This document shows positions 322 through 17,626 of a DNA stretch of 41,748 nt, piece after piece. The notes beneath the pieces are model-generated. The model saw nothing but the letters and a program-made list of their open reading frames with translations, did not search any database and was not told where the DNA came from. Within the stretch, counting starts at the first letter, position 1. Each line of letters starts with the position of its first letter. The position numbers were made by a program, and so were the translations under genes. The DNA is from Deltaproteobacteria bacterium (GTDB taxonomy: Bacteria > Desulfobacterota > JADFXK01): the NCBI GenBank assembly GCA_015233055.1, contig JADFYN010000003.1, positions 1 through 41,748 on the forward strand. The letters run 5' to 3'.

Positions 322-702
322 CAATGTCGTTGACTTAAGGGTGCAGGGCAATCGGATCTGATTCTAATATCCAATAAATGGCAACTCCAATTAAGCCCCA
401 ACGGGGCGCTCTAGGTTAGCCCAGGGCAGCGCCCTGGGGAGGGGCGATACATATATAAAATGCCATGTAACATCAACATAAAATCGCCGGCCATCCATCA
501 TTTCAGCCGTAGTTATATATCTCCTTCAACGGAAATGGTTTTGGGGTTGGCCTGCCACCTGACCATCATGCTGATATGTAACCATCTGGATTTCCCAGGG
601 CGTTGCCCTGGGCTAACCTAGATCGCCCCGTTGGGGCTTGTTTGGAATTGACTATTTTAGAATATTTAGCTCGTTTGTCCTTCGCTTAAGTCAATGACAT
701 TG
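322..702. mobile_element. 381 bp MITE with IS4-like terminal inverted repeats
   Basis: 18 bp TIRs CAATGTC(g/a)TTGACTTAAG at 322-339 and 685-702 (17/18 match). 10 bp flanking duplication atggaaacct (312-321) / atgcaaacct (703-712). No ORF inside. Confidence 0.8.
393..639. repeat. Inverted REP-like doublet inside the MITE
   Basis: 46 bp arms at 393-438 and 594-639 (44/46 complementary), each with internal palindromes GCCCCAACGGGGC and CCCAGGGCA(a/g)CGCCCTGGG. Confidence 0.85.
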
Positions 703-11923: not shown

Positions 11924-12814
11924 TTATTGCTCATGAAGTATACCGCCGGCATGAGGATCGGCCAGGGCGGTCCGGATGTGTTTCGGCAGAGAGAACATGC
12001 CCTGGTGAGATTCAGGGTCATAATGCTTTAGCTTTAAGTTCCTCAAGGCGATGGCCCGGCCGATCTCGGCCGCGGAGCACCGGTCTTTGAGGTTCGCCGG
12101 CCCGGCCAGGGCAAAAGCATTGATATCGGCAAAAAGCGTAATGGGCGTGTGAAAGGGTACGACCCCTTCAAAAAGCCGGCTCAGGGTTTTAATAATGGAA
12201 ACGAAGGGCAGGTGAAAACCGGGTTCGGTATGCTCGGCAATGGTGGCCAGAATGCCTCCGGCAGCCAGGCGGGTTTTGGCCAGAGCATAAAATTCAGATG
12301 TGGCGAAAGGAGATGGAAACTCTTCAAAATCGCTCTTAACATCGATGAAGATAATATCAAAAAAATCTTCCGTGTTGGCCAGATAATCCCTGGGGTTTTG
12401 GTAGATCGTCTCCACCCGTGAATCATCAAACGCCCCTTGGAGCCAGTCCTGGAGATGTTCCTTAGCCAGCCTGACCAGGGTTTCATCCCGTTCAGCCAGA
12501 ACAACCCGGTCTACCGAAGAGTGTTTTAGGATTTCGTTCAAGATCAATCCTTCACCGCCTCCGGCCACAAACACCCGCCGGGGACCGGCATGGGTCAGCA
12601 TGGATGGATGCACCAAAGCTTCGTAGTAAACCTGTCTATCCAAACCTGATAGCCTGGCCATCCCGTCGAGAAAAACAGCCCGGCCGAAAAACTGCGTATC
12701 CGCGATGATAATCTCCTGGTAAGGTGATTCGGTCTGGGCGATAACCCGGTTGACTTCATACATGAAGGACCGGCTTTTTTTTGAATAATCAATGATCCAA
12801 TTGTTTGAACTCAT
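11924..12814 (-). CDS. Spermidine synthase-like aminopropyltransferase paralog with degenerate motifs
   Basis: SPYQEIII, FLDG and AGGGEG motifs, collinear with the adjacent speE. Several substrate-binding residues are altered. Confidence 0.88.
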   Translation of the reverse strand: MSSNNWIIDYSKKSRSFMYEVNRVIAQTESPYQEIIIADTQFFGRAVFLDGMARLSGLDRQVYYEALVHPSMLTHAGPRRVFVAGGGEGLILNEILKHSSVDRVVLAERDETLVRLAKEHLQDWLQGAFDDSRVETIYQNPRDYLANTEDFFDIIFIDVKSDFEEFPSPFATSEFYALAKTRLAAGGILATIAEHTEPGFHLPFVSIIKTLSRLFEGVVPFHTPITLFADINAFALAGPANLKDRCSAAEIGRAIALRNLKLKHYDPESHQGMFSLPKHIRTALADPHAGGILHEQ

Positions 12815-12896: not shown

Positions 12897-13829
12897 CTAA
12901 ATGTTGCATGATCCGGGTTTGGGAAGGTTCAAGAGTCTGGAGTCGCTGATAATCATGCCGAAGTCGGTATTATTGAGGTCATCGCGCAGGTATTTGGGAG
13001 CTGAGAATAAATTTGTGTGGGTTTCGCCGTCATAGAATTTCAATCCCGCGTTCAAGTTACCAACTGTGGCGTCCACGTGGGCCGGGGTCATGATTTCAGG
13101 CAGGGGGCTGTCGCTGGCCAAAACGAATCCCCAAATGACTCGGTAAAAATAGATCATGGTATAGTAGGGCATGACGTACTTAAATACCTGTTTCAAGGTC
13201 TTGATGATGGAGACGTGGGCGTATTGCTCTCCCATCAGGGCATGCTCCGCCTGAGCGGCGAAAACGCCTCCCTCATTCAAACGGGATTTGACGATGTTAT
13301 AGAAATCCAGGGTGAACAGTCCGGCCGAGGGACTGCCCTCGAATGGATCGGTCAGATCCATGATAATACAGTCAAATTTTTCGTTAGTCGTGGCCAGGTA
13401 ACCGCGGGCGTCCTCATGTTTCAGCTCCACCCGGGGGTCGTCAAAGGCACCCTGGTGCCATTCATAGAGATGCTCCCTGGCCATGTCGACCATGATGTCG
13501 TCGATGTCGATCATGAGCACTTTTTCCACGGAGTTGTGCTTCAGGGTCTCCCGAACTACGGCACCTTCGCCACCCCCGGCCAGGAAGACCTTCTTGGGCC
13601 GCCCATTGGCCACCAGGGCCGGATGGATCAATGTTTCGTGATAAATATGTTCATCCAGGGCAGCAGACTGGGGTACTCCGTCCAGAAACAGAGCTTTACC
13701 AAAATGGTCCACATCGGCGATCAAGATATTCTGAAAACGCGACTGGGTGGACACGATGGTCTTTTTGATCTTAAACATATGAGCTCGGCACCGGCCGAAG
13801 AATTCAATAAGCCAGTTTTCAGTGCGCAT
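12897..13829 (-). CDS. speE: Polyamine aminopropyltransferase (spermidine/thermospermine synthase type)
   Basis: LDGVPQS...DEHIYHE, GGGEG, IDID and IIMDLTDP motifs intact. Confidence 0.93.
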   Translation of the reverse strand: MRTENWLIEFFGRCRAHMFKIKKTIVSTQSRFQNILIADVDHFGKALFLDGVPQSAALDEHIYHETLIHPALVANGRPKKVFLAGGGEGAVVRETLKHNSVEKVLMIDIDDIMVDMAREHLYEWHQGAFDDPRVELKHEDARGYLATTNEKFDCIIMDLTDPFEGSPSAGLFTLDFYNIVKSRLNEGGVFAAQAEHALMGEQYAHVSIIKTLKQVFKYVMPYYTMIYFYRVIWGFVLASDSPLPEIMTPAHVDATVGNLNAGLKFYDGETHTNLFSAPKYLRDDLNNTDFGMIISDSRLLNLPKPGSCNI

Positions 13830-13844
13830 GGTCGTCCCCTTGAT

Positions 13845-13892
13845 GCGGGTTGCTGGTTACGTGTTGCGGGTTACGTGTTGCGGTTTGCTGAT
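13845..13892. repeat. Degenerate heptamer tandem repeat
   Basis: gcgggtt gctggtt acgtgtt gcgggtt acgtgtt gcggttt gctgat, lying between the speE RBS and a MITE end. Confidence 0.8.
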
Positions 13893-14064
13893 CAATGTCA
13901 TTGACTTAAGCGAAAGGAAAATGAGCTAAACCTTTTAAAATAGTCAATTCCAAACAAGCCCCGGAGGGGCGCTCTAGGTTAGCCCAGGGCAGCGCCCTGG
14001 GAAATACGGATAGTTACGTGTCAGCAAGATGGTCAGGAGGTCGCTAGCCCCCAAAGTCATTTCC
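13893..14064. mobile_element. Truncated inverted copy of the IS4-like MITE
   Basis: Begins CAATGTCATTGACTTAAG, contains one REP arm, and aligns with the reverse complement of 531-702 over 172 bp. No second TIR was found. Confidence 0.8.
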
Positions 14065-14347
14065 AAAGAATCAATTATGCCTGTTCGAGGCATCCGTCCG
14101 TGGTGGGGGTTGTTTTTTGTCCGTCGGGTAACGTCACCCCGGTCGGGTTTGAATCGGATCTGTAGGAGATTGACCGCAACATTACCGAAAAGAGGACACG
14201 GGCGCAAGGGATATTTGCCGGTAGCAGAATAATCAGCCCGGTAAACGGTTAAGGTTAATGTCCGGATGCTGTTATTTGAACAATTCTCATGATATTACAT
14301 GGGCTTTATGGTATTACAAGAAAATACCATCCGGCCGAATTTTTCTA

Positions 14348-14376
14348 TTGATATTCTTTATACCTTCTGCTATGCT
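14348..14376 (+). promoter_or_regulatory. Sigma70-type promoter for the speD leader
   Basis: TTGATA-17 bp-TATGCT with a TG extended -10. Confidence 0.6.
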
Positions 14377-14401
14377 TCGCTCCTTTTCAAATTATGACTA
14401 C

Positions 14402-14458
14402 TCTTGGGTCGAAGCGGAAAGACCAAACCTATACGGATGTTAACCAATTAGGACAAGA
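14402..14458 (+). ncRNA. Candidate cis-regulatory structured RNA in the speD 5' leader
   Basis: Possible three-stem fold: UCUUG/CAAGA, GGUC/GACC and CCUA/UAGG, closing at the AAGGAG RBS. The stems are short and conservation was not checked. Confidence 0.3.
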
Positions 14459-14470
14459 AAGGAGAAAACA

Positions 14471-14545
14471 ATGAAGAGGAATCGGCTTCCTTATCATTTG
14501 ATACGCCATTTCAACGTTACGCACATTGGCTATGGACACACTTAA
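14471..14545 (+). CDS. Putative 24 aa leader peptide MKRNRLPYHLIRHFNVTHIGYGHT
   Basis: ATG preceded by strong RBS AAAGGAGA with an A-rich spacer. Stops 29 nt before the speD ATG. Below the ORF track size cut-off. Confidence 0.55.
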   Translation: MKRNRLPYHLIRHFNVTHIGYGHT

Positions 14546-14574
14546 GTTAAAACCGTTTGTGTTATGGTGCTGCT

Positions 14575-14964
14575 ATGAAATCATTAGGAAAACACCTCAT
14601 CATCGAGCTATACGAATGCGATCGGGAGATCATCAACGACTTAGAAGCCGTCGAACACCACATCACGGAATCTGTTCGGGTCTCCGGCGCGTCAATTATC
14701 AAACCTTACTTTCATAAATTCTCCCCCCACGGTATCAGCGGCATGGTCATCATTGCCGAATCCCATTTCTCTATCCATACCTGGCCGGAATACGGCTACT
14801 GCGCCGTAGATATCTTCACTTGCGGTGACCTTATCCAGGGTGATAAGGCTATGAACTATTTAAAAGAACACTTCAAGTGCCAGAACGTCTCCTTAATGGA
14901 AATAAAGCGCGGCGTCCTTGATTTACCTGACTCAGAGATAAAACACAAACCCGATCAGTCTTGA
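14575..14964 (+). CDS. speD: S-adenosylmethionine decarboxylase proenzyme (129 aa)
   Basis: MKSLGKHLIIE N-terminus, ESH self-cleavage site, HTWPE and DIFTCG motifs. Confidence 0.96.
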   Translation: MKSLGKHLIIELYECDREIINDLEAVEHHITESVRVSGASIIKPYFHKFSPHGISGMVIIAESHFSIHTWPEYGYCAVDIFTCGDLIQGDKAMNYLKEHFKCQNVSLMEIKRGVLDLPDSEIKHKPDQS

Positions 14965-17528: not shown

Positions 17529-17626
17529 GTAAGGTTAATGTGTTGTATCCGGCATACGACTAAGAACATTTTCGCCGGTTAGCCTGGTCTGCCGGCCTTA
17601 CTCAATTGCCTATAAGACCAAAAGGG

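Follow-up and report, generated by a model that had tools for sequence, protein, structure and literature searches.

Decarboxylation by AdoMet decarboxylase is the step that commits SAM to the synthesis of polyamines, and the eukaryotic enzyme is a standard example of uORF-mediated, polyamine-responsive translation. The question raised by the present locus is whether the bacterial gene for this enzyme, speD, can be put under the control of a short open reading frame (ORF) in its own leader. The locus lies in a stretch of 41,748 nucleotides from a Deltaproteobacteria bacterium (below called the window), where a 24-codon ORF precedes speD. A first-pass annotation, made from the sequence alone, proposed this ORF as a polyamine-sensing translational switch.

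Among the genes of bacterial polyamine pathways, control by leader ORFs is known, according to the published summaries, for speF (by the peptide SpeFL) and for mdtJI (by MdtU). A full-text search, with most subscription journals outside its scope, returned no leader peptide or uORF described for bacterial speD, in agreement with the first-pass annotation, which knew of none. The analysis below suggests that leader-ORF control of speD in this organism is plausible, and that it would be new.

Results

Anatomy of the speD Leader

The speD gene occupies positions 14575 to 14964 of the forward strand and encodes 129 amino acids, which match the Pfam family AdoMet_dc (PF02675, E = 8.9e-42) over their whole length. 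The product is the proenzyme of a class-1 S-adenosylmethionine decarboxylase, i.e., of the small Bacillus/Thermotoga type. Its N-terminus MKSLGKH aligns with those of homologues from Met1, and the processing site E62-S63-H64 is invariant. Upstream of speD, and divergent from it, the minus strand carries two spermidine-synthase-like genes, at 12897-13829 and at 11924-12814, and after speD comes a xerD-like recombinase gene.

The leader ORF extends from 14471 to 14545 of the forward strand, with 24 sense codons followed by a TAA stop at 14543-14545. It encodes the peptide MKRNRLPYHLIRHFNVTHIGYGHT, which has Arg at positions 3, 5, and 12 and His at positions 9, 13, 18, and 23. Its Shine-Dalgarno (SD) sequence is carried by AAAGGAGA at 14459-14466, where the core AGGAG (14460-14464) is separated by a 6-nt spacer from the ATG at 14471, and where the duplex with the anti-SD has a calculated energy of -9.0/-9.4 kcal/mol. 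The two elements by which a uORF is generally recognized, an SD and a start codon in the 5' leader, are thus both present. The leader stop is separated from the speD ATG at 14575 by a spacer of 29 nt (14546-14574), which contains the motif TGTGT (14558-14562) and the sole SD-like element ahead of speD, GGTG at 14566-14569 (within TGGTG, 14565-14569). The length of the ORF, its three Arg and four His, its strong ribosome binding site (RBS), the 29-nt gap, and the weak RBS of speD had all been listed in the first-pass annotation, and each of them is found in the sequence as described there.

A fusion of the leader peptide to SpeD by frameshifting was considered and rejected. The two start codons are offset by 104 nt, which places the leader and speD in different frames, and a TAA at 14548-14550 stands in the speD frame. 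From this follows that a fusion is excluded, as the first-pass annotation had already stated.

To see how unusual the weak RBS is, consider the SD duplex of this speD in relation to those of 152 speD loci that lack a uORF of this kind. Here the duplex has an energy of -2.8 kcal/mol, while the median for the 152 loci is -10.7 kcal/mol, with quartiles of -12.0 and -6.5 kcal/mol. Judged by these calculated energies, the SD of this speD is atypical for its family.

Conservation within the Genus

The genus is represented in the collection by three genomes, the present one (G000), G001, and G002, with none further for its order or class. The leader ORF is intact in all three, with identical start, SD, length, stop, and 29-nt gap. 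In relation to G000, G001 has one synonymous change in the ORF, while G002 has three synonymous changes (in His9, Arg12, and His13) together with the replacements L6H, P7S, and T17M. Two of these replacements come from the change of codons 6-7 from CTTCCT to CATTCC, which leaves the frame intact. There are eight substitution events in all. Five of them affect the third base of a codon (p about 0.09 by a binomial test, uncorrected for the choice among three frames), and the changed codons are four synonymous and three non-synonymous, in a comparison of three close genomes. The preservation of His9, Arg12, and His13 through synonymous changes was counted for a translated reading of the frame, and the non-conservative change of 3 of the 24 residues in G002 was counted against it. 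When the first-pass annotation suggested that RBS, ORF length, and amino acids be compared among relatives, it left the outcome open; RBS, length, and stop turn out to be conserved in the three genomes, but the amino acids are not strictly so, due to the three replacements in G002. As judged from these substitutions, the evidence for a constraint of the leader ORF at the coding level is weak.

The constraint on the nucleotide sequence has a sharp upstream boundary. In the block from 14440 to 14574, G000 differs from G001 at 5 of 135 positions and from G002 at 11 of 135 (4-8%), while in the noncoding sequence upstream, 14130-14439, the corresponding numbers are 58 of 309 and 61 of 308 (about 19-20%). 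From this drop in divergence at 14440 follows that the 135-nt block up to the speD ATG is constrained. Its level of difference is close to that of the speD coding region, which is 15 of 390 between G000 and G001. The first part of the block, TTAACCAATTAGGACAAGAAAGGAGAAAACA at 14440-14470, which contains the leader SD, has one or two differences in 31 nt, versus 11 or 12 in the 55 nt directly upstream. The spacer at 14546-14574 has one to three differences in 29 nt, all of them within 14553-14557. Invariant in the three genomes are the C-terminal residues HIGYGHT and nucleotides 14521-14552.

When 14440-14574 was compared by BLAST with 400 genomes of the phylum, the block was found only in the same three genomes, and the remaining matches were at most 45 nt long with E values of at least 8.6e-5. 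Seven loci with such short matches were examined; two of them are RBSs of real genes, and the rest either have no called ORF or lie within unrelated sequence. A scan of metagenomes found no speD with more than 68% identity to the present one.

An RNA Element as Alternative

On either side of the ORF, the noncoding flanks (14440-14470 and 14546-14574) equal it in their degree of conservation, which means that a constraint on the RNA sequence alone could account for the conservation. This leads to the alternative that 14440-14574 is a cis-regulatory RNA element, which would act by its structure or by binding a protein or an sRNA, and in which the open frame is incidental. We regard such an element as rather unlikely, and the predicted structures speak both for and against it.

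A small hairpin, AAUGA-GAGGAA-loop-UUCCUU-UCAUU, is predicted at 14470-14498 of the forward strand, where it encloses the leader AUG. Its energy in G000 is -9.3 kcal/mol with z = -1.7, and its z values in relation to shuffled sequences range from -0.5 to -1.7. The core AGGAA/UUCCU is retained in G002 in spite of the change in codons 6-7, which favours an RNA element, while in the minimum free energy (MFE) fold of G001 the UUCCUU segment pairs instead with the SD region. The significance of the hairpin is modest. In a consensus fold of the three sequences (RNAalifold), 2 of 48 pairs are changed on both sides, too few to build on, and one long-range pair covaries in G002, where 14506 goes from C to T together with 14607 from G to A. 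The SD and AUG of speD are both predicted to be mostly paired, with unpaired probabilities of 0.10 and 0.24, respectively. A duplex between the leader and the speD start has a raw energy of -26 kcal/mol, to which no weight is given here. The first-pass annotation had further pointed out that ACACA (14536-14540) can pair with TGTGT in the spacer, across the leader stop. These motifs are present, and they are paired in one MFE fold, as a helix of 5-6 bp with a 17-nt loop that is invariant and without covariation, but the helix is absent from several other folds.

Against an RNA element stands that the leader as a whole folds no more stably than its dinucleotide shuffles, with z = +0.7 for 181 nt and z = +1.1 for 238 nt. 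When 13700-14700 was searched with cmscan at E <= 10, there was no match on the plus strand to any Rfam family; the only matches were Acido-Lenti-1 on the minus strand and three chance snoRNA-like ones. At the gathering score, Acido-Lenti-1 was also the only Rfam match in the whole window. A terminator-like site was not found between 14380 and 14575. The speD leaders of relatives in the Syntrophobacteraceae, on the other hand, have a long terminator-like hairpin, from which follows that control at the RNA level is present in the clade. Finally, ribosomes should be loaded by a near-optimal SD with an ATG behind it in a 5' leader, irrespective of any other role of the RNA. Taken as predictions, the folds suggest that RNA structure may contribute to the conservation of the leader block, but that structure alone does not explain it.

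Transcription of the Leader

The sole promoter-like site on the plus strand ahead of speD, from a consensus scan, is the sigma-70-like TTGATA-17 nt-TATGCT at 14348-14376, with a TG before the -10 hexamer. The scan gave two matches in the region, while 2.5 are expected from shuffled sequences, and the site is therefore not evidence by itself. Its hexamers are mostly retained in G001 and G002. If the site is used, the transcript would start near 14383; a start near 14440 may instead be considered, and would fit the conservation boundary. With either start, no other frame would precede the leader ORF on the mRNA.

Among 17 listed sequencing runs, 16, with 13 of them recorded as RNA, contain less than one quarter of the words sampled, and run X1 contains a fraction of 0.34. 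In four peat metatranscriptome runs there are contigs over speD, and one of 200 nt, which covers 14497-14696 with one difference, runs from within the leader ORF, of which it includes the 3' two-thirds, into the start of speD. These contigs are assembled and may contain carried-over DNA, so that they neither locate 5' ends nor prove transcription. There was no contig over 14346-14496 in the four runs. Two of the metatranscriptome contigs stop near 14558, beside the strain-variable positions 14553-14557. Neither this nor the gap in coverage is given weight here.

A Mini-uORF in Sister Lineages

For comparison outside the genus, speD loci were gathered irrespective of their leaders, 27 from genomes of relatives, 80 from metagenome contigs, and 80 from species-representative genomes. 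The nearest speD genes have 60-68% identity to the present one and belong to uncultured "Deltaproteobacteria", Syntrophobacterales, Desulfosoma, and Desulforhabdus. At 16 of these nearest loci, a mini-uORF of the form ATG-ACN-TGA ends 15-33 nt before the ATG of speD. It is always preceded, at a distance of 5-6 nt, by AAGGT (or AAGGGT, GAGGT, or AAGGC). Its second codon ends in C, G, or A and encodes Thr in every case, and TGA serves as the stop throughout, while spacer and flanks are unalignable between the four subgroups. Searching the 400 phylum genomes for the pattern gave 10 matches, nine of which are true speD leaders (four in family f42, four in family f81, and one in family f74); the tenth, in G316, is a false positive, where the gene is not speD. 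The reversed pattern, used as a control, occurred in none of the 400 genomes. Compared with Rfam, nine mini-uORF loci gave nothing but chance miRNA-like matches.

The SD of speD itself is weak also at the mini-uORF loci (-3.4 to -6.2 kcal/mol), while in most of the more distantly related speD genes a strong SD immediately precedes the start. The SD of the mini-uORF, too, is only about 4 nt long (-3.9 to -6.5 kcal/mol), which counts against our reading. Translation of the mini-uORF is putative, and is suggested by the fixed spacing between SD and start together with the wobble pattern of the second codon.

In a quick maximum likelihood tree of 166 SpeD proteins, the present one groups with nine of the mini-uORF loci and with four loci in which an SD directly precedes speD (SH-aLRT 83); the remaining seven mini-uORF loci lie next to this group, at an unresolved fork. 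This gives weak support to a history in which the 24-codon leader came into being within a clade where a short uORF before a weak-SD speD was ancestral. The leaders of G000, G001, and G002 contain no ATGACNTGA, i.e., they are without the mini-uORF motif, and sequence homology between the mini-uORF and the 24-codon ORF could not be demonstrated. The two leader types have in common only the architecture, Thr as the last sense codon (ACT here), and a loose TAACC...AAAGG-N6-ATG context. Since a uORF stands before a weak-SD speD in the nearest lineages too, this arrangement looks like a trait of the clade, of which the 24-codon frame would be one version.

Discussion

A Translated Leader as a Proposed Gate of speD

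The reading that we prefer is that the 24-codon ORF is translated and gates the translation of speD, to which we give about an even chance. To exemplify how this could work, consider a ribosome that initiates on the speD mRNA. It would be recruited by the strong leader SD (AGGAG with its 6-nt spacer), and not by speD's own GGUG. By translating the leader it would open the local pairings in which the leader AUG and the start region of speD are held, and it would terminate at the UAA, 29 nt upstream of the speD AUG. Some of the ribosomes, or of the 30S subunits kept after termination, would then reinitiate at speD, helped by GGUG. If a ribosome lingered on the leader stop, it would extend to about 14556 and border on the site of speD initiation, so that slow termination would lower the output of speD. 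The first-pass annotation let speD expression depend on ribosomes that translate the leader or stall on it. As far as translation is concerned, uORF-dependent expression of speD can reasonably be inferred from the conserved leader ORF, the weak SD of speD, and the uORFs of the sister lineages. The first-pass reading is to this extent partly supported. Stalling amounts to a different proposal.

A Possible Arrest Peptide

In that proposal, the nascent 24-mer and a polyamine or SAM-derived metabolite would together block release at the UAA, and the stalled ribosome would occlude or expose the start of speD, so that speD would be under feedback control in the manner of MAGDIS, SpeFL, or TnaC. We hold this to be possible but rather unlikely. 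It would be in line with the invariance of HIGYGHT and of 14521-14552 in the three genomes, with the synonymous preservation of His9, Arg12, and His13, and with the position of the stop, at which a parked ribosome would, by its estimated geometry, abut the initiation footprint of speD. That L6H, P7S, and T17M are tolerated within the genus argues against it. How well the leader fits a sensing role can further be judged from leader ORFs that are already known.

Key residues of TnaC are W12, D16, and P24. At these positions the speD leader has R12, V16, and T24, its stop is UAA instead of UGA, and the gene that follows is speD and not tnaA, so that it is no member of the TnaC family. According to its published summary, TnaC is a leader peptide of 24 residues that brings about a Trp-dependent block of release by RF2. 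The two are thereby alike in length and as leader ORFs for which regulation occurs, or would occur, at termination, but the speD leader is without an evident Rho-dependent spacer and belongs to another pathway.

A closer functional precedent is SpeFL, the leader peptide of enterobacterial speF, which is described as arresting, in dependence on ornithine, at its own stop codon and as acting by Rho antitermination. In the available description, SpeFL has 34 residues and lies 257 nt from speF; its motif HIRRXXH at positions 10-16, about 18-24 residues from the C-terminus, recognizes ornithine, and its Phe core (Phe20, 26, 28, 30, and 31) makes up the C-terminal effector domain. Like SpeFL, the speD leader is a short, basic, His- and Arg-rich ORF 5' of a gene for polyamine biosynthesis, but it has 24 residues with a single Phe (F14), and it ends 29 nt before speD, not speF. 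In the segment Y8-H9-L10-I11-R12-H13-F14-N15-V16-T17-H18 there is neither RR nor a His at +6, and no register fits the motif. With HIRRXXH and the five-Phe core both missing, the precedent of the SpeFL arrest peptide that the first-pass annotation had brought up does not extend to the sequence, where no relationship to the published motifs is seen.

The other bacterial precedent, MdtU, is encoded by a uORF of Escherichia coli mdtJI and is, as summarized in the literature, induced by spermidine in a Rho- and translation-dependent way. It has 34 codons, with the stop 106 nt upstream of mdtJ, and mdtJI encodes an exporter. Here the likeness consists in a bacterial uORF in polyamine homeostasis, with the C-terminus as the most conserved part and with overlapping RNA that is predicted to pair with the downstream RBS. 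Compared by description and not by peptide sequence, the two differ in length and in downstream gene, so that the speD leader is not an MdtU; moreover, MdtU controls an exporter and is induced rather than repressed by spermidine.

The same enzyme is controlled by uORFs in eukaryotes. In mammals the peptide is MAGDIS, where the terminating ribosome is reported to block the main start, and plants are described as having a tiny uORF of 2-3 codons together with a small uORF of 48-55 codons. A 2009 survey, which in its accessible part covers eukaryotes only, concludes that such control of AdoMet decarboxylase arose at least three separate times, which counts in favour of the arrest proposal. The 2-3-codon uORF of plants, with reinitiation, has a parallel in the Met-Thr-stop mini-uORF of the sister lineages. 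Since eukaryotes use cap-dependent scanning without an SD, and since the peptides are unrelated, the likeness could at most be a case of convergent evolution. Start-stop and other very short bacterial uORFs, as well as upstream RBSs, have been described in a Ribo-RET study and in a study of uRBSs in Sinorhizobium. In these, too, a minimal frame led by an SD lies in the 5' leader and affects expression of the gene behind it, through coupling or by occluding the RBS, but the cases are generic, in their published summaries none concerns speD, and they do not explain why the mini-uORF has a conserved Thr codon and an unvarying UGA.

The mini-uORF weighs also on the arrest proposal. A uORF of two codons is unable to sense through the exit tunnel, from which follows that what the clade has conserved is something other than sensing by a peptide.

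Conservation without Function and a Free-Standing Peptide as Less Likely Readings

Returning to the preferred reading, a translated leader that gates speD, its evidence must be set against what chance could produce. The motif AGGAG-N4-9-ATG occurs 14 times on the two strands of the window, in 8 cases at the head of ORFs of at least 79 codons and in 6 cases at the head of ORFs of 16-33 codons. Besides the leader ORF, there are thus five other short ORFs with AGGAG and ATG, and the motif by itself is therefore weak evidence. RBS strings nearly identical to that of the leader are found ahead of real genes, in G000 itself (C266, 169 aa) as well as elsewhere in the phylum (L191 and L194), which counts for the preferred reading. 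The string TTAACCAATT, which occurs 23 times in G000 when about 8 copies are expected at equal base frequencies, was considered as a common translation initiation region or promoter box, and dropped because its copies lie mostly away from gene starts.

It could be argued that the frame is a chance one without function, and that its conservation comes from close kinship or from the promoter or 5' end of speD. The genomes are three and related, the window has other ORFs of the same kind, and for a 75-nt frame it is not improbable to survive eight substitutions. This explanation is nonetheless improbable. Divergence falls exactly at 14440, where the stretches on both sides are noncoding by annotation; the weak SD of speD is atypical; and the sister lineages have, independently, a uORF in the same position. 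The case beyond chance rests on the conservation in all three genomes of the genus, the sharp boundary at 14440, and the analogous uORF in the sister speD lineages.

Least credible of all, and in our judgment very improbable, is a free-standing small protein that acts in trans, e.g., as a His-rich metal binder or as a regulator made from the speD transcript, for although the RBS is good and the composition unusual (four His and three Arg in 24 residues), the peptide has no paralog in G000 (the next best tblastn match has E = 1.1), no similar peptide or uORF upstream at any of the 187 speD loci compared, no Pfam match, no hydrophobic segment, and non-conservative changes inside the genus.

Implications

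The uORF pattern of the clade is clear and is unreported in the literature searched; for the 24-codon ORF itself the evidence is comparative and thin. A bolder proposal, which we put forward as speculative and rather unlikely in its full extent, is that this clade of Desulfobacterota regulates AdoMet decarboxylase by uORFs, in convergence with animals, plants, and fungi. The 24-mer would then be a new termination-arrest sensor for a polyamine or SAM metabolite, and Met-Thr-UGA would be a minimal version that operates at the release step.

If the leader ORF and the mini-uORF gate the translation of speD, then the same regulatory logic, applied to the same enzyme, would extend to bacteria. In that case, the two-codon uORF, in which neither the Thr codon nor the UGA varies, would also offer a tractable system of very small size for studying how reinitiation or the release step is controlled.

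Initiation Signals of the Leader ORF and of a Mini-uORF in Sister Loci

On contig G000:C266 of the window's own genome (about 17539-17572, minus strand; locus L198), an initiation region composed of TTAACCAATT, 10 nt, GAAAGGAGAAAAC and ATG heads a gene for a 169-residue, secreted-looking protein, and this region is near-identical to that of the 24-codon leader ORF upstream of speD. The RBS of the leader ORF therefore has a match in front of a real gene of this genome.

In sister lineages of the window's speD, the Syntrophobacterales and allied uncultured lineages, a much shorter frame, Met-Thr-stop, is found 15-33 nt ahead of the gene (loci L028-L030, L032-L035, L037, L039, L040, L108-L110, L112-L114 and L200-L208). 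This mini-uORF is built from an AAGGT-like SD, 5-6 nt and ATG-ACN-TGA, its Thr codon and UGA stop are invariant across these loci, and the speD that follows the conserved frame has only a weak SD.

A long terminator-like hairpin with a U-run behind it is present in L037, L039, L040, L110, L112, L113 and L201-L208; it separates the promoter-like region from the mini-uORF and lies about 25-110 nt 5' of the mini-uORF. Its arms are CCUCCAUUUAUGG and CCAUGAAU(C)GGAGG, while the inner loop is variable. The hairpin looks like a candidate transcription attenuator or riboswitch platform; an Rfam scan of nine mini-uORF loci, including hairpin carriers L037, L039 and L040, gave no match.

Genomic Neighbourhood of speD

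Divergent from speD in the window lies a tandem pair of spermidine-synthase-like genes (11924-12814 and 12897-13829, both on the minus strand), the second of which has a weaker Pfam match and may encode a different aminopropyltransferase. Another contig (G000:C36:2822-3109) carries a second, distant speD-like gene with 28% identity.

The Acido-Lenti-1 RNA motif occurs at 13957-14001 (minus strand, 43.9 bits), 594-638 (plus strand, 39.3 bits) and 394-438 (minus strand, 39.2 bits), the gathering score being 37. The first copy sits between the speE-like gene and speD. The stretch that holds it is absent from G002 and mostly absent from G001, the two other genomes of the genus, and no copy of the motif was found in their matching loci. 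Matches to 13938-14043 occur in many contigs from peat metatranscriptomes, and these contigs then continue into sequence that is unrelated, the behaviour expected of a dispersed repeat.

Other speD Leaders

Immediately 5' of Atribacterota-type speD (L044, L046, L053, L055, L057, L059, L063, L126) there is a G-run and then a GCGATAT...ATATCGC element, a region that can be read as a 7-codon ORF in L044 and L046. Since this ORF is lost in the other loci, the element is probably an RNA hairpin. In Deferrimicrobium-type speD (L047, L049, L058, L070, L078, L116), GGAGGTAGG is placed 17-25 nt 5' of the start, an unusually long SD spacing. Start-stop pairs behind a strong SD occur in L070 (ATG TAA) and L063 (ATG TAG). 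Finally, sister loci L041 and L065 have in common a 12-codon, SD-led uORF 50-56 nt upstream of speD, with similar predicted peptides (MEPFLQIPLRFN and MLIFLKFPLRSV); it may encode another speD leader peptide.
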